A stretch of 64,000 nucleotides of DNA from positions 3,312-67,311 of the forward strand of contig CAKTYZ010000003.1 in the NCBI GenBank assembly GCA_934635225.1. The letters are read 5' to 3'. Below, one piece after another: positions 32,503 through 47,683 of this stretch. Every line of letters begins with the position of its first letter. The first letter of the stretch is position 1. Both the position numbers and the translations under genes were made by a program. The notes under the pieces are model-generated. The model was given only the letters and a program-made list of their open reading frames with translations, was not told where the DNA came from and ran no database searches. This stretch comes from an uncultured Kiritimatiellota bacterium (GTDB lineage Bacteria; Verrucomicrobiota; Kiritimatiellia; RFP12; UBA1067).

Positions 32503-34632
32503 TTATCTCAGGATCATCAGGAACGCTTCGCGCGGCACGCGGAGGCTGACCGTCCGCCGGTCGTCCGAGAGCGTGACCCGCGCGCGGGAGGCGTGTCGGC
32601 GCGCGGCGTCCTGGATCCTTTCCAGCGTCTTCTGCGAAATGCGGATGCGCCAGGTGTCGTTTCCGCCGGAATAGCGGAAAAGCGTCGTCTTCACGCCCGT
32701 CCGGCGCACGGCCGAGAAATCGAAGTCGAAGGCCGTGTCATCGCACAAGTGGAGCGCCTGGTTGGACGACTCGACAGGCGCGGTCGCGTAACCGCCCTCC
32801 GGGACCGCGAACGCGAACGTGCACCGGTTCGTGAAGTCGCCGCTGTTGCCGCCCGTGAGCATCAGCTTCGCTCTCGGCCCGAAGAACGAGAAGCGCGAGC
32901 CGCCATCCGTCTCCGAATCGTTCTGGTAATTGGGAAGAAGCGCGTTCGAGACGTGCAGCGTGCCGTTTGAGAGAACAAGTTCAGAATCCAGACCCGACAG
33001 CCGGACGATGGAGCAGGAGACCGATGAGTCCGTGCCGACCCACAGGCGGTTGCCGGCATTCCCCGATGAGCCGATCTCAATCCGGCTCGTCGCATTCGTG
33101 AAGGAACAGCCGTCCAGCCTGACCCAGTTGTTCGAGGCGCGCACGTCCTCGCGCCCAATCAGGATGTCTCCCGACACCTTGAGCGAGGCTCCGTCCGTCA
33201 CCTCGACATGGTTTCCTCGCGATCCCATGTGTCCGACGACAAGGGCGGCGCCCGACCCCGACCCAACCGTCACAACGGCATCGCGTCCGCGCACGACGAG
33301 GGCATTGTCAAAGCTCGGATAGAGCGCACCGCACCTAATGCGATTGTCACACTGAAGCGTGCCGCCCTCCAGGACCTCAAAGACATTTGAGGCCACGAGG
33401 CTCGTCAGGTAGAGCGGCATCTCCCTGTCGTCCGGATGACGCGCCGCCACGAACACGTTCGTCGCCGCAAGCGTCGCCCCGCCATCGACCGTGACGCGGT
33501 TCCAGAGCGACGTCACGCAGCTGTCGCCATATCCCTTGGCCTGGCCGCCCGCCGAGATCGTGTCCACGAAGGACACCGAATTGCTCGTGAAGTGAATCCG
33601 ATTGAAGAGGCCGTTCTGGCCGGCGGTCAGCGGTCGGTCAAAGCCCGAGTAGAAGTTGGAGAACGTCGTCCCCTCGCCGGCGACATACAGGAGATTCGAA
33701 TGCGAATAGCCGTCGCCCACGGCGAGAAGGATGTGGCCGCCCGCGGCATACGCGCCGTCCACGCCGCCCGCAAGGAACCGGGCGCCGCCGACCACGTCCA
33801 TGCGGTTGCCGTGGTTGGCGGATCCGTTCCCGCAACAGCCGATGTAGAACTGCTCCTGGGTGCCGTTCGGGCACATCGAAAGCGTCGCGTTCGAGACGCA
33901 CAGATACGCAGCGCCGCCATCGCGGTAGGCACTGAGGCCGCCGACGCCGAGGTAGCTCACGTTGGAGACGACCGCGCCGTCCGTGACGTACGCCTGCGAC
34001 CGAAAGCCCTGTCCGCCGACAAGAAGCTCGCTTTTGTTCGCGTCAAGCGACGACCCCTCGCCGCGGATGAAGACGCGGCAGTCGTTGCCGCGGCTGTGGA
34101 GACGACCGCGCATCGAGCCGCCGTCCGCAATCGTCAAATGACGCGTGCCGCCATCCTGGAAGTTCAGGTTGCCGACGAAGCGACCGCCGTTTTCAATGGA
34201 CATCGTGCAGCGCCGATAGGCGTTCCAGAACGTCACCTCCAGCGGATTGCCGTTCGTGTCCTCAAACGCGACCGTGCCGTTGCGGATGACGTTCGTGGCG
34301 TTGTTGTGGTCATGGTTGCTGTAGGGCTTCCGGAACGTCAGCGTGTGCCCGCCGAGGTCGAACGTTCGCCGACCGGCATTGCCCGCAAACCACCACGTGC
34401 CGGGGAAGTCGAGGTCGGCCGTCAGCGTCAGCGTGTAATCCGCCGACGGCTGCGCCTTGAAGCCCATCGCCTCGGACGCCTGCGTCGGACGCATCCCGCC
34501 CTCCCAGTTCGCGTCCGCCGACAGGTCTGTCGAGGCGACCCCCGTCCACCAGACGACCGTCGGATCACCCGCCAGCCCCGACACGGCGCCCAGCGCAACG
34601 CATCCGAAAAGAAGGAGAGCCGAAAGGTTCAT
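32503..34632 (-). CDS. Secreted beta-helix repeat protein (paralog of 10798-12858)
   Basis: Signal peptide MNLSALLLFGCVALGAVSGLAG, followed by repetitive GG/VSN/TL beta-strand repeats. The ATG at 34632 is the likely start, although the ORF track extends to a TTG at 34656 through a G11 tract. Confidence 0.55.
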   Translation of the reverse strand: MNLSALLLFGCVALGAVSGLAGDPTVVWWTGVASTDLSADANWEGGMRPTQASEAMGFKAQPSADYTLTLTADLDFPGTWWFAGNAGRRTFDLGGHTLTFRKPYSNHDHNNATNVIRNGTVAFEDTNGNPLEVTFWNAYRRCTMSIENGGRFVGNLNFQDGGTRHLTIADGGSMRGRLHSRGNDCRVFIRGEGSSLDANKSELLVGGQGFRSQAYVTDGAVVSNVSYLGVGGLSAYRDGGAAYLCVSNATLSMCPNGTQEQFYIGCCGNGSANHGNRMDVVGGARFLAGGVDGAYAAGGHILLAVGDGYSHSNLLYVAGEGTTFSNFYSGFDRPLTAGQNGLFNRIHFTSNSVSFVDTISAGGQAKGYGDSCVTSLWNRVTVDGGATLAATNVFVAARHPDDREMPLYLTSLVASNVFEVLEGGTLQCDNRIRCGALYPSFDNALVVRGRDAVVTVGSGSGAALVVGHMGSRGNHVEVTDGASLKVSGDILIGREDVRASNNWVRLDGCSFTNATSRIEIGSSGNAGNRLWVGTDSSVSCSIVRLSGLDSELVLSNGTLHVSNALLPNYQNDSETDGGSRFSFFGPRAKLMLTGGNSGDFTNRCTFAFAVPEGGYATAPVESSNQALHLCDDTAFDFDFSAVRRTGVKTTLFRYSGGNDTWRIRISQKTLERIQDAARRHASRARVTLSDDRRTVSLRVPREAFLMILR

Positions 34633-34633
34633 A

Positions 34634-34644
34634 CCCCCCCCCCC
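34634..34644. repeat. Homopolymeric C11 tract (G11 on the coding strand) ending 1 nt upstream of the beta-helix gene ATG, in the RBS position
   Basis: The minus strand reads aatataGGGGGGGGGGGtATGaacctt. Confidence 0.9.
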
Positions 34645-34751
34645 TATATTTAGCAAGAACAGCCTTGCGACAAACCGTTTTAATCATTTTTCTCATGTTC
34701 TTCTCTCCTTTTGCTTTCCTTTGTTTCTGCAAGCCGTTGTTGACGACACCG

Positions 34752-35909
34752 TCATTTGCACGTTATGGTCTTCTTGCGCTTATAGTCATAGCAAAGACAG
34801 TTCTTTTGTCGCAAGTACCGATCTGAATTGTTTCCGACCCGGACGATCTTTATCAGCTTGGAGTTCGTGTCAAACGTAACGAAGTTGAAGCTGTCCTGAC
34901 TTTTCGAGCCTCTGATTCGAACGGAGTCATTCCATTGCGAATTGAGACTGGCGTTCTCAAAGGCGATGCAATACTGGGCCGGATGCCCCTTGATGACGCC
35001 TTGATAGTCATAATGCGAATCTCCGTGCATCCAGCAGATGAAATCTCCTCCAGACGAAATAAAGGCATCCACCTCTTGAACGAACTTCATCATGCTGTGA
35101 CCGCCATTGTAAGGCTTTAAGTCAATGCTGTTGAAGGTGTTGTTCTCCGAATCCTGAATCACTTCAAACGGAAAATGCTTTGCGGCGACAACGGAGAGGC
35201 CTTTCTCCTTCGCGTCCGAAAGCGCCTGTGCAAACCAATGAAGCTGCTCGTCGCCCGTGTCTTTCGGAACGAACATGCAGTCCAGAACGATGAGCCTCAC
35301 CTTGGCCTCCGCATAGTCCTTGTAATACCAGCAAAAGCCCTTTTCCTCGGCATCAACGGGCTGGACGACGCCCCAGCTTCCTATATGGGGCTGAAAGTAC
35401 CTAACGTAAGACTCCTTCCCGGAATGATACGACCAGTCCGCCTCGCTCAGGCTGCTATTGAGGGTGTCGTGATTCCCGATGGTCTTCAGAATCTTTTCCG
35501 TGCCTTCAATGCCGTCCCAGAAGTCCATGGGGTCTGCAAACGAAGATGGAACCATATCGCCAAGGCAGAGCATGTCGTCGATGTAGCGCCCGTACTCACG
35601 CGAGAAGTCGACGTATCTCTTCAGGTTTTCCTTGCAGCCATGAATGTCCGTAAAGACAGACAGGGTGCAAAGCCGATGGGACAGGACCAGGTTGCTTGAA
35701 TAGGGCCTTGTCGACTGCAGGATGAGGTTCCCCACGGTCTGCCTGTCATTTAAGTGGAAGACGGAAGATTTCCCGTCGGCAAGATCGCCCGACAGGCCCG
35801 CCAGAGACGACGGCTTTCCGTCCGAAGCGCAGAGCGGCGCGGCGGCGAACGACGCCGTGCCGACGATAAACGACTTTCTCGTGACCTCGCTCATCTTTTC
35901 TATCGCCAT
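34752..35909 (-). CDS. Calcineurin-like metallophosphoesterase, probably secreted
   Basis: GDMV, GNHD and WMHGDSHYDY motifs. The N-terminus ...TRKSFIVGTASFAAAPLCAS resembles a Tat/Sec signal. GC is lower (~50%) than in the flanking genes. Confidence 0.7.
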   Translation of the reverse strand: MAIEKMSEVTRKSFIVGTASFAAAPLCASDGKPSSLAGLSGDLADGKSSVFHLNDRQTVGNLILQSTRPYSSNLVLSHRLCTLSVFTDIHGCKENLKRYVDFSREYGRYIDDMLCLGDMVPSSFADPMDFWDGIEGTEKILKTIGNHDTLNSSLSEADWSYHSGKESYVRYFQPHIGSWGVVQPVDAEEKGFCWYYKDYAEAKVRLIVLDCMFVPKDTGDEQLHWFAQALSDAKEKGLSVVAAKHFPFEVIQDSENNTFNSIDLKPYNGGHSMMKFVQEVDAFISSGGDFICWMHGDSHYDYQGVIKGHPAQYCIAFENASLNSQWNDSVRIRGSKSQDSFNFVTFDTNSKLIKIVRVGNNSDRYLRQKNCLCYDYKRKKTITCK

Positions 35910-35984
35910 GTTTCAGTTTCCTATATGCATTATACCATACATTCGATTTTTCCGTCAATCACGCCTCCGCACTGGGGCAGGGTC

Positions 35985-39068: not shown

Positions 39069-39290
39069 TCAGGGACCTACATTGCCGTCATCCGCCGCAG
39101 CTTGCTGCAGCTCCTTCCGGCAGAACCTCTTGGAAACGCCCATCGCGCAACGCCCCCGCGCCGGAACGGGCATGCAGCTGCGGTTCTCCACACGCTTCAG
39201 TCCCGACATGATCAGGACGGCGTATGCCCCGGTGCAGGTAAAGGCGCGGTCTTCCGCAATACGAACAAGGATATCGTTGTCATCGGCCAT
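39069..39290 (-). pseudogene. Truncated ASCH-domain gene copy (N-terminal 57 aa homologous to the 42711-43202 gene, then divergent)
   Basis: The stretch AFTCTGAYAVLIMSGLKRVENRSCMPVPARGRCAMGVSKRFCR is identical to the full ASCH gene. The GxKxxExR ASCH motif is present but the rest of the domain is missing. Confidence 0.6.
39118..39246. repeat. 129-bp direct repeat, copy A (128/129 identical to 43033-43161)
   Basis: Read directly from the sequence; there is a single mismatch (ctg/cta). Confidence 0.9.
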
Positions 39291-39293
39291 AAG

Positions 39294-39806
39294 CTACCTC
39301 CTAAAACCTATCAATTCACCTCCTTTGAGATAAATGGGGGCGCCCGGCTTGAAGTCGCCGCCTTTCTCGCGCTTGCGCTCCGCGATGAGCTGCGGCACGT
39401 CCAAGTCGCCAAGCGACACTTCCTCCTCCAGCACGTAGCAGTAGTAGTCGCACTGGGCGGAAGCGTAGCCCATCTTGATCATCTTGTCCTTCTCGCAGCG
39501 CATAATTGTTCGGCGCGTCTTCCCCAACTGTTGCGCGTAATGTTCGGCTCGCATGCCTGGATGTGCCTTTATGAGCGAAAGCAATCTGTTCCGATCATCA
39601 TTTACTGTGACATTTACTGTGCTAGTTACTGTGACACCACTTGATTTTGCCGTGACAGCCTTTGCCCTTGCTGTCTCATCCGATGTCATAGTATTTCTAT
39701 GGACATTCATCCTTACGGCGATGCCCGCATCTTCGACCACGACGGGGTTTATGCCATGCCATAATCGCGCAAGATGCCATTCACGCGGCGCAACCCACTG
39801 CCCCAC
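39294..39806 (-). CDS. Hypothetical protein with a C-terminal winged-HTH-like region; true start uncertain
   Basis: The C-terminus ...LLSLIKAHPGMRAEHYAQQLGKTRRTIMRCEKDKMIK is HTH-like. The N-terminal region contains VTVTSTVNVTV, encoded by TTACTGTGAC direct repeats. The gene is low GC. Confidence 0.35.
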   Translation of the reverse strand: MGQWVAPREWHLARLWHGINPVVVEDAGIAVRMNVHRNTMTSDETARAKAVTAKSSGVTVTSTVNVTVNDDRNRLLSLIKAHPGMRAEHYAQQLGKTRRTIMRCEKDKMIKMGYASAQCDYYCYVLEEEVSLGDLDVPQLIAERKREKGGDFKPGAPIYLKGGELIGFRR

Positions 39807-41335: not shown

Positions 41336-41680
41336 TCATTGCCCGACCCCTCTTGTTTCTGTCTTCCAATAATGTTTTGCTGAATGCACAACCGCGACCT
41401 CGATTCCGTCTATTATAGCAAGACGTTCTGCTAGACGCTCTGCGAAATACACGGATCGGTGCTGTCCCCCGGTGCAGCCGAAGGCGACTTGAAGATGATC
41501 GCGGCCATCTCGCTTGTATTGTTCTATCGATTGGCGAACAAGCGTCTCGGTCGCCTCAAGGAACGGCTCGACAGTCTTTGGGAAGCGGGCGAAGAAGTCA
41601 CAGACGGGATTGTCGCGCCCCGTGTAGCCGCGTAGTGTCTCGTCCCAGAATGGGTTAGGCATGGCCCGGCAATCGAACAC
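41336..41680 (-). pseudogene. rapZ: C-terminal fragment of rapZ (RNase adaptor RapZ/YhbJ). The N-terminal P-loop half is missing and only 125 nt remain before the next gene.
   Basis: ...CRAMPNPFWDETLRGYTGRDNPV...LQVAFGCTGGQHRSVYFAERLAERL matches RapZ residues ~155-284 (LPNPHW...GCTGGKHRSV). Confidence 0.6.
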
Positions 41681-41805: not shown

Positions 41806-42711
41806 TCACCTATGGCTCTCCGATTCAGGCGGCTTATCATCGTCAGTCTCGTAGTAGTATGAATAATCAATGCCTTTCATGAACATCTCCCGATCGGCGA
41901 TTTTACTGGTTAGGGCGGGTCGGAGGAGTTGCTTGAGTGGCTTGCTGTCCGAGACGCTTGTTCGCATTGCGGAAAGGTATGTCTTCTTGTCCACCTTGCT
42001 CCAGTCGATGCATCGCTTGAGAGAGCGTTTCAGCATAAGGTCGAGCCAGATGCGCGTGGCGCGTCCATTCCCCTCCATGAACGGGTGCGCTACGTTCATT
42101 TCAACATACTTGTCGATTATCTCTTCGAACGCGTTTTCGGGCATGGCCTCAATTGTCGCGAGCGTTGTCGGGAAGTGCATACAGTTGGCGAATGTGAAGC
42201 CGCCCTTGGAAATGTTCTTCGTCCTGACCTGTCCTGCGAAGTCGTATAGACCGCCGAAGATGTATCCATGAATCTGCCGCAGGCACTTCACGCTTCCCGG
42301 TTCAAGGCTGGACAAGAGATCGCTCTCGAAAAGCGCATACGCCTTATGGCGCGATTTACCGTCAATGGTGTTGTCGGAGTAGAGGAACCAGTCGAGAAAT
42401 GCCGTTGCCCGTTCATTTGGGATTTTCTTTGCAAGCGCGACAACGCCGTCTGCATCCACGACGTCGGAAAGATAGGACTTGCCGTCCGCCGCTTTCAGCT
42501 TCAGTTGGGTAGTGGCGCTAACCAGCTCGTCGTCCGTCCGTTTCAGCTTCGCCTTGAGGAATTTCCAGTAGTTTCGTGCTTTGGCATATTCAGGTTCATT
42601 GTTGATGGCGGCAATGACATCAAGAACAGAGAACCGCCACTTTGCGGCGGCATCATCCCAGATCGCCCGCACCTCGCGGTCATTGTAGAAACGGATGGAA
42701 GATTTATGCAT
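41806..42711 (-). CDS. Fic/Doc family protein with an N-terminal Bro-N/KilA-N-like domain
   Basis: Fic motif HPFMEGNGRATRIWLDLMLKR. The N-terminus IRFYNDREVRAIWDDAAAKWRFSVLDVIAAI is Bro-N-like. There is an AGGAG RBS, and the ATG shares one nt with the ASCH gene's TGA (TGATG). Confidence 0.8.
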   Translation of the reverse strand: MHKSSIRFYNDREVRAIWDDAAAKWRFSVLDVIAAINNEPEYAKARNYWKFLKAKLKRTDDELVSATTQLKLKAADGKSYLSDVVDADGVVALAKKIPNERATAFLDWFLYSDNTIDGKSRHKAYALFESDLLSSLEPGSVKCLRQIHGYIFGGLYDFAGQVRTKNISKGGFTFANCMHFPTTLATIEAMPENAFEEIIDKYVEMNVAHPFMEGNGRATRIWLDLMLKRSLKRCIDWSKVDKKTYLSAMRTSVSDSKPLKQLLRPALTSKIADREMFMKGIDYSYYYETDDDKPPESESHR

Positions 42712-43202
42712 CAGTCAGCTCCTAATTGCGCATTTACTGCACCAGAAACATCTTCCGGCAGCCGCCACATTCCGACATTGCCGCGACAGGGAATGGGAGC
42801 AGGCAACTTGCGAATGTTCGAGAGTAGCCACCAGTAGCGGTAGCCTTCATTCCAAAACTGCGCCTGAACCCGCCAAGGTTCTTCTTCGGGTTCTGCATCT
42901 ATCGCCTGGTAGTCCATCACCGCGACGATGTGGCCCGGCCAACAGCTCGCCTCTTCCCATGTCGGGACGATGGCATCCACCCTGTCGCCGTTTAATCGCC
43001 GCAACCACGCTTTGATGCCGTCATACTCGGCGCGGCAGAACCTCTTGGAAACGCCCATCGCGCAACGCCCCCGCGCCGGAACGGGCATGCAGCTACGGTT
43101 CTCCACACGCTTCAGTCCCGACATGATCAGGACGGCGTATGCCCCGGTGCAGGTAAAGGCGTTGACGATTGGCATAAGTTCAATTAAGAAGATACCCTGC
43201 AA
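42711..43202 (-). CDS. ASCH-domain protein (full length, 163 aa), translationally coupled to the downstream Fic gene
   Basis: The GLKRVENR segment fits the ASCH GxKxxExR motif, and the protein has the expected ~110-aa beta-barrel length plus an extension. Confidence 0.6.
   Translation of the reverse strand: MQGIFLIELMPIVNAFTCTGAYAVLIMSGLKRVENRSCMPVPARGRCAMGVSKRFCRAEYDGIKAWLRRLNGDRVDAIVPTWEEASCWPGHIVAVMDYQAIDAEPEEEPWRVQAQFWNEGYRYWWLLSNIRKLPAPIPCRGNVGMWRLPEDVSGAVNAQLGAD
43033..43161. repeat. 129-bp direct repeat, copy B (inside the 5' part of the ASCH gene)
   Basis: Read directly from the sequence; matches 39118-39246. Confidence 0.9.
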
Positions 43203-43235: not shown

Positions 43236-43664
43236 TCAAATGAGAGACAATTCTACCATGGACACAAAGCCTGTGTTTCCAGCACAATCAGATGTGCCAA
43301 GGATTAAATGATCGATAAGCGGTACGCCCATAAGGTCTGCCGCCTCGCGCAGTTTCGTTGTCGCCGCGATGTCCGCCTTGCTGGGCGTGAGGTCGCCCGA
43401 GGGATGGTTGTGCGCGACGATGATTTCCTCCGCGCCGGCTTTCAGCGCCTCGCGGAAGATTGCGCCCGCGTCAATTGTTGCCGTGCCGTCCTTGTGCCCG
43501 ACGGAAACAAGAATCGGCTTGGCAAGTGCCTTGCCGTTGCCGTCCAGCGGCAGGACGAACACACGCTCCTCCTTCTGCTCCTTCGGCAACGCGGCGCGGA
43601 ACATCGCGTCAGCGTCAGCGGGGGTTTCGACGCAGCACTTTTCTAACAAACCTTTATGCCTCAT
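43236..43664 (-). CDS. RadC-like JAB/MPN domain protein
   Basis: ...EIIVAHNHPSGDLTPSKADIAATTKLREAADLMGVPLIDHLILG is the JAMM motif. The start was set at the internal Met (MRHKGLL) because the long ORF overlaps the upstream gene. Confidence 0.75.
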   Translation of the reverse strand: MRHKGLLEKCCVETPADADAMFRAALPKEQKEERVFVLPLDGNGKALAKPILVSVGHKDGTATIDAGAIFREALKAGAEEIIVAHNHPSGDLTPSKADIAATTKLREAADLMGVPLIDHLILGTSDCAGNTGFVSMVELSLI

Positions 43665-43977
43665 AGTGAAACACCTGGTAATTCTCGACATTGCGTTTGT
43701 TGATTGTGAAGCAATCATGTTTTTGTAAAAACTTGGCGATGTCTGCTTCGCATGGAAAAGCATGATGTTCAAGATAGAACGACCTGAAGTCTTGCTTCAG
43801 CAACTTAGCAAGAGTCATTTCAAACTCACCTTTCCAGGACAAACCCATTTTTGCCAAATCAACAACAAACTCGATTTCTCGACTAGTTCCTGAGGCTTCA
43901 AGACATGCAAATACACGAATAGTGTCCTTGCTACCGCGTACTTTTTGCACATCCCCTATGACTGCATCGGTTATCAT
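43654..43977 (-). CDS. Hypothetical 107-aa protein, overlapping and co-oriented with the RadC-like gene
   Basis: The ORF overlaps the radC-like start by 11 nt; low GC; no recognisable motif. Confidence 0.4.
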   Translation of the reverse strand: MITDAVIGDVQKVRGSKDTIRVFACLEASGTSREIEFVVDLAKMGLSWKGEFEMTLAKLLKQDFRSFYLEHHAFPCEADIAKFLQKHDCFTINKRNVENYQVFHYEA

Positions 43978-43986
43978 TGTTTTTCT

Positions 43987-45027
43987 CTAGGGTCTTGAAA
44001 AATCCATGACATAGTTCTCGTCGTCTAGTTTATAGAACTTTACTTCCGTTCGGCCATATCTTTTCAAGTCGGAAACAGAAATATATGCGCCATTCGGCAA
44101 CCCCAACCTTTGGCGAAAATAGCGGCCAATCTCAGAATTGTCCTGTGGTGTTTCTATACCTTTACCATTAGCCTGAGCACGAACACAGGTAAAGATTCTG
44201 TCATCGTCAGTAAGGACAGTGAAGCGATGCTTGACATCTGGAAAAAAACCTGAGCGTTGAAGCGACGCCGGAAGTCCAATGTACGACTGGTTAGGGTCGC
44301 GTTTGCTTACCGACCCATTTCCATTCGTCGATGTCCTCGGCTTCCCATCAGGGCGGACTCCCCAATTTAAGCGCGACCCGTTGCCAGCGTCTCCCTTGGT
44401 TGTGAGCAACGACAAAACAACCATTTCGTGATTGTAGAACGGCGAAGTTTTATCCGTTTCTATCTTAACAGCTTCAGAGGATTTGGCTATTAGCGATGTA
44501 GCATGAGATTTTGTTGAGAAATCCTTATCTCTATTTGCCTTGTCGCATAAGATGGTCTTTTTCTTTACCTCCTCAAAGAAATCAAATGCCGTTGAAGGAT
44601 CGCATTCAGCAAGCGTCTCTCTCCGACTTGGAAGATGGAAGCCTGATTCTGAGTAGTTGGCAGAACCGATGAATGCCTGTACGGGCTTGTCGCCTTTGCA
44701 CCAAACATACACCTTAGAATGCACTGACGACGGCTTTCTCACATACGAACAAGTGAAGTCGCCATTGTATGCGAACTCCTTATGTTGTTCAAGAGAGATA
44801 AAGCCAAGATGGTTTATTTTGCTAACACCATCAGAACCCGCCATGCCATATATCAAATCAACAGATAGACTCTTCTTCCGAGATGTGCTTTCTATCAAAT
44901 GCCGCGCCGCCATCGCATGAGTAGCGTAACCTGAAACAATCTTGATTGAATTGGGTGCATCGCTTCTGAAGAGCGGCTTGATAAGCGCATACTCAAAAAG
45001 TTCATCGTCAACTACAGTTCCAAACAT
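43987..45027 (-). CDS. PLD-family (HxK...GSxN) nuclease, a likely Type II restriction endonuclease of the NgoFVII/BfiI type
   Basis: The HSKVYVW...IGSANYSESGF motif is present. The gene lies 29 nt downstream of a C5-MTase gene and is very low GC. Confidence 0.6.
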   Translation of the reverse strand: MFGTVVDDELFEYALIKPLFRSDAPNSIKIVSGYATHAMAARHLIESTSRKKSLSVDLIYGMAGSDGVSKINHLGFISLEQHKEFAYNGDFTCSYVRKPSSVHSKVYVWCKGDKPVQAFIGSANYSESGFHLPSRRETLAECDPSTAFDFFEEVKKKTILCDKANRDKDFSTKSHATSLIAKSSEAVKIETDKTSPFYNHEMVVLSLLTTKGDAGNGSRLNWGVRPDGKPRTSTNGNGSVSKRDPNQSYIGLPASLQRSGFFPDVKHRFTVLTDDDRIFTCVRAQANGKGIETPQDNSEIGRYFRQRLGLPNGAYISVSDLKRYGRTEVKFYKLDDENYVMDFSRP

Positions 45028-45056
45028 AGGCCTCCTTCGCGGATTGTCATCTGCTT

Positions 45057-46793
45057 CTATTTTAAGACTCCTTCGTCAGAAATGTTACACTCAACATGTT
45101 CATAGGCAATGCCCGCAAGAGTACGAAGCAATGCCTCAAAGATGATTTGCGCACCTCTAGGAGGCACTGCCATACCTATTTGTTTCCGCACACTTTCTTT
45201 ACTGCCTGTAAAGAGATAGTCATCAGGGAATGTCTGCAACCGTGCTCGTTCGCGATTTGTTAGCGCACGCGGCTCTGCGTAATGGTAGATATGAGTACCG
45301 CCACCGCCTGATCCAGTAACTGTATAAGCAGGCTTATCTGGATCGAGGCGCTTATAAATTTGGCTGATTTTAGCGCCTTTTACATTAAGTTGAAGGTGAG
45401 GCGGCAGATTTGCCGTGAATGCGTTTTCTCCAGGCCGTATATACTGCAAGCGTTCTACGACAACGGAACTTTGCGCCGTTCGCGTATTGTTAGGAGCATT
45501 TGGAGGTATGGGAGGATTCTCCAATGCGGCTCTCGCAGAATTGTCCCTCGGCATGATTGAGACTGGGCTGGGCGGAAAGAACGCAAAAGGCAAGTCTTCC
45601 CTTATGCCGATTATGATTATCCTGTGGCGCGTTTGCGGCACGCCGTAATCCTCAAACTTGTAAAGATGAGGATAGATGCGATACCCCGCCTCCTTCATGC
45701 TCGAAAGAATCTTTTTGAGTGCCGCGCCTTCGTTTGCGCTGGCAAGACCACCTACATTCTCGGCAAAGAACCAAAGCGGATTGAACTTGCGAAGCACGGC
45801 AACGCCATATTGATATAATGGGCCGTAGTTTCCGTCAATACCTTTATGTTCGCCTACGACCGAAAAATCATTACACGGGAAACCAAAGGCGAAACCGTCT
45901 ATGCTCGTCAGACGCTTGTCATCCAAGTCTATCTTGCGCACATCATCGCATATAACAGAAGCAGGAGAATCTGGACAGATGTTCTCCGCATAAGTCTTGC
46001 AGGTCTGTTGGTCGTAGTCATTCGACCATGCATGAACAATCTTAAAGTTCTGATTCTCGATCGTCGCATTAAGCGCACCACACGCAAGGCCGCCTGGTCC
46101 GCAAAAGAACTCCCCCATACGATATGGTTGACCATTGGGCGTGCCGGGCATTAAGGCATGGTTGTATTCTGCACGACACTCGTTATCAACATAGTCTATT
46201 GGTTCCGTTCTTGGCACATGGTGTTGTTCTGGGTACATCATTGACAGAAAAGTAAACTGATACGCCGCCTCGCACACGCGCAGCTGTTCGGGGCGCAGTT
46301 TCGTGACGACTTCCGGCAGACGTTTCGCGAGGTCGGGGTCGGCGCGGTCAGGCGACTCGAGGTACGCCTTGAGCTGCTTGCGCACTTTGGGCGCGGTCGC
46401 GAAGTCCGCCGTGCGGACGATGACGCGCGCCGCGTCTTCCGGCGGCGTCAACTTGTGCTGATACTTGAGCTTCGTCTTGAAGAGCAGGTACTTCTCGCCG
46501 TGCGCCCTGCCCTTCGCAGGGTAGCCGTAGTCGCGCACCAGCTCTTCGCGGGTCTTGACGCCGACGAACTCCGCCTTGTACGTCCTCTGCTCCTTCGAGC
46601 CCTTGAAGAGCCACAGCTCCGCGATCGACGCGGCGTCGGCCTCGGCGATCTTGTCGTCGTCCGAAATGGGGTAGTTGTACCAGCCGCGCCACTTCGCCAG
46701 CTGGTCGCCCTTGTAGGTGCCGACGAGGACAACCCTGCCGCGCTGTCCGTCATCCGTCGTCCCTTGCGTTTTCTTCTGCTTTCTCGTTGCCAC
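45057..46793 (-). CDS. DNA (cytosine-5)-methyltransferase with a ~184-aa N-terminal extension of different base composition
   Basis: Motif I FFCGPGGLACG, motif IV GFPCNDFS and an ENV motif. The ORF begins with GTG. GC switches abruptly from ~65% to ~45% at ~46240, where an in-frame MMYPEQ could be the true MTase start. Confidence 0.8.
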   Translation of the reverse strand: MATRKQKKTQGTTDDGQRGRVVLVGTYKGDQLAKWRGWYNYPISDDDKIAEADAASIAELWLFKGSKEQRTYKAEFVGVKTREELVRDYGYPAKGRAHGEKYLLFKTKLKYQHKLTPPEDAARVIVRTADFATAPKVRKQLKAYLESPDRADPDLAKRLPEVVTKLRPEQLRVCEAAYQFTFLSMMYPEQHHVPRTEPIDYVDNECRAEYNHALMPGTPNGQPYRMGEFFCGPGGLACGALNATIENQNFKIVHAWSNDYDQQTCKTYAENICPDSPASVICDDVRKIDLDDKRLTSIDGFAFGFPCNDFSVVGEHKGIDGNYGPLYQYGVAVLRKFNPLWFFAENVGGLASANEGAALKKILSSMKEAGYRIYPHLYKFEDYGVPQTRHRIIIIGIREDLPFAFFPPSPVSIMPRDNSARAALENPPIPPNAPNNTRTAQSSVVVERLQYIRPGENAFTANLPPHLQLNVKGAKISQIYKRLDPDKPAYTVTGSGGGGTHIYHYAEPRALTNRERARLQTFPDDYLFTGSKESVRKQIGMAVPPRGAQIIFEALLRTLAGIAYEHVECNISDEGVLK

Positions 46794-46815
46794 TTTCTCC
46801 GTCTCCCTGAATCGC

Positions 46816-47415
46816 TCAACTTGCGCGGCCCTGCCGCTTCGACTTGCGCCTTCGCGCCCCGCCCTTCGTCCGCGTCCCGTCAGGCCGACGCGCGAACTCC
46901 GCGCATTCCGCGTCGGTCAGAAGCCCCTTCCCGTTGGCCACATGGGCGGCGTCGCGCAGGCGGGCGGGCCCAATCGCGCCATCGGCTCTCGCCGTCCGCA
47001 TCGCCTCGACGAGCCGCTGGCACTTTATGCCCTCGAAGCCCTCGTATTCGACGACTTCACATGGCCGGTTGCAAGCGAGCCGACAGTACTTGGGAAGCCT
47101 GCGCCTCACCCGCCTCGGCGTCCCCAAGTAGACGAACGGCGGACTCGCCGGCGTCAGGCCGAGCATCTGCACGACCGAAGCGCCGCGCAGATACGCGCCC
47201 TCCCCCGCAACGGCGACAGACGCGGCGTAGCGGTCGTTCCGGCCAACCACATGGTGCTTGACCTGGTAAACGCCGTGCCCGAGACGCATCAGGCGACCGC
47301 TGCGCTCCATGGCGACAAGACATTGGCGTGAAACGCCAAGACCCTTCGCTTTCGCGGAGGTGATGATGCCGTAGTTGCCTTCGGCAACGCCCCAAAGTAC
47401 GTCGTATGCGCTCAT
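46816..47415 (-). CDS. AbiEi-like antitoxin N-terminal domain protein (winged-HTH transcription-regulator fold)
   Basis: ...GIITSAKAKGLGVSRQCLVAMERSGRLMRLGHGVYQV fits the AbiEi_4 N-terminal pattern. The start was set at MSAYD, which has a TATAAT box ~13 nt upstream. There is no adjacent AbiEii-type nucleotidyltransferase. Confidence 0.5.
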   Translation of the reverse strand: MSAYDVLWGVAEGNYGIITSAKAKGLGVSRQCLVAMERSGRLMRLGHGVYQVKHHVVGRNDRYAASVAVAGEGAYLRGASVVQMLGLTPASPPFVYLGTPRRVRRRLPKYCRLACNRPCEVVEYEGFEGIKCQRLVEAMRTARADGAIGPARLRDAAHVANGKGLLTDAECAEFARRPDGTRTKGGARRRKSKRQGRAS

Positions 47416-47426
47416 GACAGTGCCGT

Positions 47427-47432
47427 GCATTA
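47427..47432 (-). promoter_or_regulatory. Perfect TATAAT -10 box immediately upstream of the AbiEi-like start
   Basis: The minus strand reads catggTATAATgcacggcactgtcATGagc. Coordinates are +/-2. Confidence 0.35.
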
Positions 47433-47683
47433 TACCATGAGCAGGGCCTGAAAGGCAATGGCGGACGGGCATGGGATTCCGCCGCCGCGCCCGAACGGAC
47501 GCGGAGGCGGAATCGATCAGAGCGTGATCCCGACGCCGGAACCCAAGATGGAGCAGCCTCCCGACAGCGACACGACGCTGCCGCCGAGAACCGCGAGCAG
47601 GACGGGCCTGAGCGCGTCCCACAGCATCTTCGCGAGCCGATCCCAATTTATCATCTTCCGTTTCATTTTCCTCGCACCTTCCC

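Follow-up and report, generated by a model that had tools for sequence, protein, structure and literature searches.

A host-like N-terminal domain and a RadC-like gene probably frame an exchangeable restriction-modification cassette in a Kiritimatiellota bacterium

A 64,000-nt stretch of DNA from an uncultured Kiritimatiellota bacterium (contig CAKTYZ010000003.1; called the window, to which all coordinates refer) contains a DNA methylase gene at 45057..46793 on the minus strand, which codes for 578 aa from a GTG start codon and changes abruptly in base composition within the open reading frame (ORF). The gene probably encodes a two-domain fusion protein, the catalytic part of which would belong to a replaceable restriction-modification (R-M) cassette between two framework genes, one for the N-terminal domain (N-domain) of the fusion and one for a RadC-like protein. 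This architecture recurs across genomes, is delimited by two boundaries and combines modules with decoupled histories.

Results

A compositional break separates two domains of the methylase

A sequence-only reading of the window had described an abrupt GC switch within the methylase ORF. A two-segment likelihood scan of ORF GC content, with 1000 codon shuffles as null, confirmed this switch and placed a single change point at 46263 (2-log-likelihood support interval 46255-46272). The likelihood ratio was 43.3 compared with a shuffle maximum of 21.4 (n=1000). GC content was 0.652 upstream, host-like and in agreement with the ~65% reported before, and 0.482 downstream, which is above the ~45% of the earlier estimate. 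In sliding windows it was ~0.64 over 46300-46800 and ~0.49 over 45057-46200; the window has ~65% GC overall and a lower-GC mosaic at ~39.3-46.3 kb. The break is located between Y178 and Q179, about seven codons upstream of the in-frame MMYPEQ (46241) to which it had been assigned, and motif I of the methylase (F230) follows M185 at a distance of ~45 aa, not ~30 aa as previously counted. Nearly all of the contrast resides in third codon positions, whose GC content (GC3) is 0.89 upstream of 46263 and 0.46 downstream. Host genes in the window (AbiEi, PilT, LacI and others) have GC3 values of 0.73-0.89 like the N-terminal part, and low values are shared by the neighbours of the methylase part, a restriction endonuclease (REase) gene (0.46) and orf107 (0.42).

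The upstream part of the protein consists of a Lys/Arg-rich leader (aa 1-20; 46733..46793, minus strand) including the GTG start, and of the conserved N-domain (aa 21-177; 46263..46732, minus strand; GC 0.65, GC3 0.89), which was delimited by its homologues and by blastn and is referred to as framework block 1. Nucleotide homology to other loci starts only at 46732; the leader differs in sequence between loci and is similar in character, and its predicted local distance difference test (pLDDT) score is <50. A protein search with aa 1-184 retrieved 229 homologues with 50-89% identity, all of them collinear with the query up to ...LRPEQLRVCEAAYQ and divergent beyond. An exhaustive profile search of 1.84 billion representative proteins yielded 244 N-domain clusters, with the domain nearly always in N-terminal position. 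Residues 1-184 had no match in Pfam, NCBIfam, PADLOC, PHROGs or PDB sequences, and a Pfam search of 68 N-domain members at E<=1 returned nothing for the N-domain. Many aromatic residues are invariant, conserved residues show synonymous variation across two phyla, and the N-domain is under purifying selection across both.

In an AlphaFold (AF2) model, aa 20-175 reached a pLDDT of ~90 and folded into a beta-barrel followed by helices, the C-terminal helical subdomain comprising aa 135-175. Foldseek searches with this model gave weak matches only (E 0.007-0.07, template modelling score 0.26-0.49). The best matches were consistently PUA-like (ZmASCH 5y6b, PF0470, AF2351, phage DUF3850 proteins and the reader domains of modification-dependent nucleases). 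The modelled fold may thus bear a weak likeness to PUA/ASCH domains. The N-domain differs from the PUA-like (ASCH/EVE/DUF3850) domains, its best structural matches, by the extra C-terminal helical subdomain and has no sequence-profile match to them.

Downstream of the break, a linker (aa 178-222; 46128..46262, minus strand) forms the junction and the first low-GC part of the cassette. It opens with the conserved motif Q-x-x-F-[LFW]; its sequence depends on the methylase class, and only ~40% identity remains even where the catalytic domain is 88% identical. A model of the full-length protein displayed two confident domains and a sole low-confidence stretch between them (aa 176-190, pLDDT <50), which coincides with the compositional break. 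The remaining residues (aa 223-578; 45057..46127, minus strand; GC3 0.46) match C5 cytosine DNA methyltransferases in PF00145 (233.7 bits over aa 225-556, cutoff 22), TIGR00675 (167.2 bits, cutoff 100.65) and PADLOC MTase_II (E 1e-112, from aa 224). Motifs I (F230-CGPGG235; FxGxGG), IV (G304-FPCNDFS311, with Cys307), VI (E345-NV347) and VIII (Q387-TRHR391; QxRxR) are invariant in the alignment of this methylase class, and residues 225-556 are predicted to be a canonical C5 methylase. The co-oriented REase gene (43987..45027, minus strand; PF09565 and PF20731, PADLOC REase_II) starts 29 nt after the methylase stop codon and belongs to the NgoFVII-type, phospholipase D (PLD)-family Type II enzymes. 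The same methylase class is paired with this REase in loci L047, L027 and L062. Judged by these family matches, methylase and REase would form a complete Type II R-M pair, with GCSGC as putative recognition site by analogy with NgoFVII.

The same fusion point recurs with unrelated methylases

The N-domain was found in 61 loci of GTDB genomes, the window not counted, all of them in gut or rumen metagenome-assembled genomes of Kiritimatiellota, Lentisphaerota (including Victivallales) or unclassified bacteria of the same habitats, and often at two or three loci per genome. In 48 of the 61 loci it is fused in frame and at the same residue to a full-length methylase (490-697 aa), which together with the window gives 49 fusions. 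The fused methylases belong to the C5, N4/N6, Dam-like and Eco57I-like classes. Among 70 cluster representatives, the Pfam partners were PF00145 (36), N6_N4 (9), D12 (2), Eco57I (1) and DUF3791 (7), and a DUF3791 tail is present on 25 of 68 close N-domain homologues.

In 46 of the 61 loci, tblastn with the window proteins located a RadC/JAB gene at a distance of 1.5-4.5 kb downstream from the N-domain, and clustering of all ORFs within +/-10 kb revealed only the N-domain and RadC as common across loci. Between the methylase stop codon and RadC, at least one ORF of >=70 aa, mostly a single gene, is present in 40 of 44 paired loci (window included). The families at this position comprise HpaII, NgoMIV, MvaI/BcnI, Bpu10I, EcoO109I, EcoRII, BsaWI, MutH-like, HNH, MTaX1 and DUF4928 as well as an N6_Mtase/Eco57I-type protein. 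Locus L032 (3685-5200) carries a non-R-M cassette, in which an N-domain-DUF3791 fusion is followed by DUF3990 and RadC.

The compositional step is equally widespread. Averaged over the 49 fusions, GC3 was 0.69 for the N-domain, 0.46 for the methylase part and 0.63 for RadC, and the N-domain exceeded the methylase part in 47 of 49 (Wilcoxon 7e-14). On average, GC3 remains level at 0.65-0.71 as far as the junction and then drops to 0.44 over 10-20 codons. GC3 of N-domain and RadC follows the GC content of the flanks (rho ~0.53), and that of the cassette does so weakly: N-domain values go down to 0.32-0.40 in low-GC hosts, while the cassette remains at ~0.3-0.6.

These data bear on the proposal that the right edge of an acquired island happened to fall inside a host gene and created a one-off chimera. 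The sharp GC step, the host-like upstream part and the continuation of the low-GC region to the left are all compatible with such an event. A boundary within the ORF and a mosaic protein, which the sequence-only reading had proposed, are indeed found; the accident is not, since the fusion occurs at the same residue in 48 other loci and with many methylase classes, and since a database check found the extension in the ~60 closest relatives of this methylase. Full-length homologues with the N-domain, which had been named as the mark of a genuine domain fusion, exist in two phyla of the Planctomycetota-Verrucomicrobiota-Chlamydiota (PVC) group. The smooth composition expected along with them is absent, the step being a property of the whole family. 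Moreover, host-like composition resumes 2.6 kb downstream, in RadC. Taken together, the recurrent fusion, the family-wide step and the blastn boundaries described below refute a one-off chimera, to which we assign next to no probability.

Several loci carry only a remnant of a methylase. Stumps of 55-76 aa with C5 motif I follow the N-domain in loci L001, L005, L011 and L036 and in proteins P0001, P0007 and P0018. The stump ORFs end in ...WEAA* or LEVA*, which corresponds to the translated ribosome binding site and ATG of the next, unrelated gene (e.g. ORF6N+HNH or NOV_C). The same stump occurs on N-domains that are only 70-80% identical to each other, and P0001 alone stands for 52 member sequences. 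The stumps are scars of imprecise replacement. The stump tail (...WEAA*) was also considered as a conserved recombination site and rejected, because it is the translated ribosome binding site and ATG of the following gene.

A different kind of remnant was seen in locus L017 (8503-8886; P0119), where a second, truncated N-domain copy is located 1.1 kb upstream of the intact one. Here, ...RTADFA is joined directly to methylase ...ANRPDTNVINDD, which by its sequence suggests that the DNA between two short 'DFA(A/T)' stretches was deleted.

Two homology blocks delimit the cassette

The 3' boundary lies at the RadC-like JAB gene (43236..43664, minus strand; 142 aa from the ATG at 43664), which is referred to as framework block 2. 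It matches PF04002 (96.6 bits, cutoff 22.1) and PHROG 10276 (E 9e-24), was called as 142 aa in metagenome contigs as well, and has a GC content of ~0.60 in its conserved part (43297-43630). A second GC change point was detected at 43637 (support 43620-43649). We compared the window by blastn with loci L008, L009, L010 and L031, which represent four genomes with four different cassettes. Block 1 extended from 46732 to 46263, 46270 or 46255 with 92-95% identity, and homology resumed at 43630 or 43628 and continued to ~43297 with 88-92% identity. No nucleotide homology to these four loci was detected between 46262 and 43631. Nearly the same two blocks recurred in comparisons with ~55 loci. The homology gap between the two blocks, together with the change points at 46263 and 43637, defines ~43631-46262 (minus strand) as an exchangeable cassette of 2.63 kb, which contains the linker and the methylase catalytic domain, the REase, orf107 and the first ~11 codons of RadC. 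Since host-like composition resumes in RadC, 46263 represents a cassette boundary and not the edge of an island. Orf107 (43654..43977, minus strand), a small low-GC gene of unknown function, lies at the 3' end of the cassette; a weak homologue is located upstream of RadC in locus L018.

A rival reading is a dedicated, integron-like insertion at the N-domain/linker junction, catalyzed by a recombinase encoded elsewhere or by RadC itself. The step is sharp (~10 codons) throughout the family, a single residue served as in-frame joint for at least four unrelated methylase superfamilies and for DUF3791, and the constant partner RadC has been predicted by others to process nucleic acids (PMC5512222). 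However, the breakpoints at the junction scatter over ~20 nt (46249-46270) and third-position conservation near the junction shows no excess over the rest, so that a precise site-specific recombination site is not likely. A search for direct and inverted repeats of the junction sequence across 33-49 kb revealed none related to the junction, the sole find being an unrelated repeat of 129 nt (see below), and the two cassette ends share no repeat. Likewise, no recombinase is conserved within +/-10 kb of the loci; a conserved nearby recombinase and a repeated site at the cassette ends, the hallmarks of an integron-like system, are thus both missing. The common stumps also document replacements that were imprecise. 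We therefore consider site-specific insertion unlikely.

Framework and cassette have separate histories

The N-domain of the window is 94% identical to that of L008, whereas the methylases share 31% identity. The reverse applies to L062, where N-domain identity is 33%, compared with 80% for the methylase and 69% for the REase. An N-terminal extension is present in each of the ~60 proteins closest to the catalytic domain (72-93% identity), and their N-domains are 25 to 94% identical to that of the window. Within the methylase class of the window, catalytic domains have a median identity of 82%, compared with 27% for N-domains. Inside one genome, frameworks are 92-97% identical yet carry different cassettes, and in the paralogous pairs L023/L025, L018/L029 and L017/L059 the within-genome identity exceeds any between-genome match. 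Standalone methylases of 349-356 aa, including proteins from Clostridium and Methanocorpusculum, are 71-74% identical to the catalytic domain and have no linker. Their sequences would fit a capture of the methylase from low-GC gut organisms.

The close similarity of frameworks within a genome, together with the presence of several loci per genome, could also be explained by GC-biased gene conversion. Conversion would homogenize the framework paralogues, and the middle part would simply have kept an older, lower GC content without being a recent arrival. Yet the N-domain GC3 of 0.89 only equals that of single-copy host genes (0.83-0.89), and across hosts it follows the flanks, down to the low values given above, while the cassette stays in its own range. 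In addition, the identities of the modules are incongruent and the cassette middles are unrelated enzyme families. Gene conversion as the source of the step is therefore very unlikely.

The full-length product probably starts at the GTG codon

The ORF of 578 aa from GTG is as described in the sequence-only reading. The GTG start is supported by homologues, which have ATG at the equivalent position (MATQKHKK..., MAVKK...) followed by a similar basic leader, and by the identical 578-aa product that independent gene callers predicted on 11 metagenome contigs. An SD (Shine-Dalgarno)-like GGAG is located 5-8 nt upstream of the GTG. The methylase gene is intact, and the 11 contigs, which stem from different samples, encode the identical protein among chromosomal housekeeping genes.

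As an alternative, translation could start internally, at M185/M186 or M215, and the upstream 530 nt could then be either a separate gene or the non-functional remains of one such as AbiEii. Consistent with this idea, standalone relatives begin near aa 222, a partnerless AbiEi gene lies directly upstream, and NCBI records of near-identical proteins from the same 90% clusters start internally with lengths of 364-397 aa (MDO5313053.1, MBO7435220.1, MBQ0031401.1 and MCQ2395860.1, in the clusters of P0259, P0263 and P0267). Other gene callers, in contrast, gave 565-580 aa for members of these clusters. M185/M186, and thus the start at 46241 suggested earlier, are unconserved in the same methylase class (A-L in L047, T-I in L062), and no SD-like sequence precedes the internal Met codons. 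Moreover, the N-domain is uninterrupted and in frame in 49 fusions, evolves under purifying selection across two phyla and folds confidently in the model, and its coding region contains no promoter-like site comparable to that upstream of AbiEi (see below). A disrupted host gene or AbiEii remnant finds no support either, given that the N-domain lacks a match to nucleotidyltransferases (NTases), DUF1814 or any other family in Pfam and NCBIfam, and none was found in PADLOC. An internal start as the sole start is accordingly given little credence; an additional short methylase isoform, minor in amount, is possible.

A solo AbiEi gene precedes the methylase

The locus is flanked by genes for V-ATPase, S20, PGK, PurE and PilT on one side and for a GntR/LacI regulator and a fucosidase on the other, and no integrase or transfer gene was found in this context within 10 kb. 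The gene upstream of the methylase (46816..47415, minus strand, in the region 46816-47646) codes for a solo AbiEi-type regulator or antitoxin of 199 aa (PF13338; PADLOC AbiEi, E 4.5e-37) and ends 22 nt before the methylase GTG. No AbiEii nucleotidyltransferase (DUF1814) lies next to it. A lost AbiEii partner, which had been invoked to account for the N-terminal part, does not agree with the distribution of AbiEi, as no homologue of the window's AbiEi was found in the other loci. By sequence comparison, AbiEi upstream of the methylase appears to be a lineage-specific arrangement. The best promoter-like site of the region, a sigma-70-like candidate with TTGCCT-18-TATAAT and an upstream TG (47429..47458, minus strand; consensus match only), is located just upstream of AbiEi. 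AbiEi is probably the first gene of the operon, and the position of this site suggests that it may regulate the operon, in which case AbiEi may have been recruited as controller of the R-M genes.

The neighbouring island contains further variable segments

Downstream of RadC, a 129-nt direct repeat with 99% identity (39118-39246 and 43033-43161) holds the 5' part of orf163. The repeats flank a 3.9-kb segment with the rest of orf163, a Fic gene, orf114, two lipoprotein genes and orf170. The window pieces 39118-39504 and 42745-43161 are contiguous in L009 (17783-18457; 98% identity), which indicates that the window arrangement is a circular permutation. This arrangement is reminiscent of a Campbell-type insertion with long target duplication, or else of a tandem duplication that was truncated.

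The Fic-domain protein (41806-42711, minus strand) matches the PADLOC candidate defence family PDC-S04 near end to end (E 3.6e-160). Its gene is located between orf163 and orf114, which adjoin each other in L009 and L017, and could represent a second cassette that was inserted into this island. Orf163 (42711-43202, minus strand) belongs to PHROG 3193 of unknown function and orf114 (41336-41680, minus strand) to PHROG 18111, annotated as 'ATPase'. Downstream of RadC, both genes reappear in L009, L015 and L017, and orf163 additionally in L056. They act like additional parts of the framework that are separated by variable insertions. The LIMSGLKRVENRS stretch of orf163 presumably resembles an ASCH motif. 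In L083, L084 and L085 and at the ends of L070, L074 and L082, contigs with identical RadC break or change content after RadC, in the 5' part of orf163, which points to strain heterogeneity or to repeat-induced assembly breaks at the 129-nt repeat. A separate lower-GC patch (34600-35950; 0.45-0.55) between high-GC genes contains an ORF of 385 aa (34752-35909, minus strand), which may be another acquired gene.

Discussion

The arrangement can be explained by a defence locus with a stable frame and exchangeable contents. According to the reading that we consider probable, a basic leader and an N-domain of ~160 aa are joined by a flexible linker to a C5 methyltransferase, which would protect the genome from the adjacent NgoFVII-type endonuclease. 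The N-domain and RadC would be long-resident framework genes, whereas the cassettes would originate from a pool of lower GC content and be replaced much more rapidly than the framework. The 5' boundary of the cassette would coincide with the beginning of the linker between the two domains, a position likely to tolerate in-frame joints. Replacement may occur by recombination with paralogous loci or with DNA from related bacteria, the framework blocks (470 and 334 nt) serving as homology arms. New methylase classes may be captured occasionally by illegitimate joints, of which selection would keep the in-frame ones only. The function of the N-domain would be independent of the methylase class and is probably nucleic-acid binding or regulation.

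Several observations weigh against this reading or restrict it. Transfer between frameworks with only 25-40% N-domain identity cannot be accounted for by homologous recombination, and neither can the fact that four methylase superfamilies were repeatedly captured in frame at one residue. Exact look-ups of AbiEi and RadC revealed no allelic replacement at this chromosomal site, and all 17-19 contigs with identical AbiEi or RadC carry the same cassette. A near-identical copy of the cassette was not found in another framework, so that the acquisition is undatable. Depletion of GCSGC would have been a sign of long residence, but the window contains 708 sites (~1 per 90 bp), more than the 547 +/- 22 expected from shuffles. 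Furthermore, translation of the full fusion is a prediction from sequence, NCBI annotators start near-identical proteins internally, and the fold assignment of the N-domain is weak in view of the Foldseek values given above.

The nearest precedent, with which we also group defence-island hotspots in general, is the allelic substitution and mobility of R-M gene complexes between conserved flanks (Furuta, Abe and Kobayashi 2010, PMC2853133). In both cases, one slot between conserved sequences accommodates different R-M systems, and the cassettes have a lower GC content than the host and no linked integrase. The 'insertion with long target duplication' described in that study is resembled by the neighbouring 3.9-kb segment with its 129-nt direct repeat. 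Here, however, both flanks are dedicated framework coding genes that travel with the slot to many positions, and the 5' boundary lies inside an ORF, so that every methylase arriving in the slot ends up fused in frame. Domain movement (DoMo) in Helicobacter pylori methyltransferases (Furuta et al. 2012, 2014; PMC3467074, PMC3983042) likewise exchanges specificity modules by recombination at conserved flanks and produces mosaic methylases. DoMo moves target-recognition domains within one enzyme family, whereas the loci studied here exchange the whole catalytic domain between unrelated superfamilies, together with a restriction gene, and the non-catalytic N-domain stays in place.

C5 methylases of the M.SsoII/M.EcoRII type, in which an N-terminal region controls transcription of the R-M operon (PMC3978073, PMC6100179), also carry an extra N-terminal region on a flexible linker. 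That region is ~70 aa long in M.SsoII and contains a helix-turn-helix (HTH) motif, whereas the N-domain comprises ~160 aa, is beta-rich, has no HTH match and is attached to all methylase classes and to DUF3791. RadC-like JAB proteins are known from mobile elements and polyvalent proteins of conjugative elements and phages (Iyer et al. 2017, PMC5512222), where short RadC/JAB genes are linked to DNA methylases as well. In contrast to those loci, the loci described here are chromosomal, have no transfer genes within 10 kb and use RadC as a fixed 3' frame. A fixed non-catalytic N-domain on all methylase classes combined with a fixed RadC partner is present in none of the compared precedents. In the literature on RadC plus methylase hotspots and on R-M systems in Kiritimatiellota, we found no description of the N-domain...RadC architecture.

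A more far-reaching reading, which is tentative and on present evidence rather doubtful, regards the N-domain and RadC as an undescribed, PVC-specific two-gene chassis that captures and operates interchangeable toxin/antidote modules. These modules would be Type II R-M pairs of any class, DUF3791/DUF3990, or nucleases of the HNH or NOV_C kind, the N-domain would in every case carry the antidote as its fusion partner, and the chassis would be functional beyond a role as homology arms. For example, the N-domain could tether or regulate the methylase, and RadC could process the fusion protein or DNA. The junction could be a programmed docking point, which would make the system similar to an R-M integron without a classical integrase.

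On the practical side, methylase start sites in these phyla need care, and the N-domain goes unannotated in GenBank records. More generally, where composition changes abruptly within a gene, this need not be an accident and can mark a module boundary that recurs and is under selection. The present locus defines an uncharacterised domain and a fixed N-domain...RadC frame, whose contents amount to a catalogue of Type II R-M systems from gut and rumen bacteria that have received little study. If it proved to be functional, this frame would represent a new way to organise and diversify restriction-modification and would offer a testable role for RadC-like proteins.

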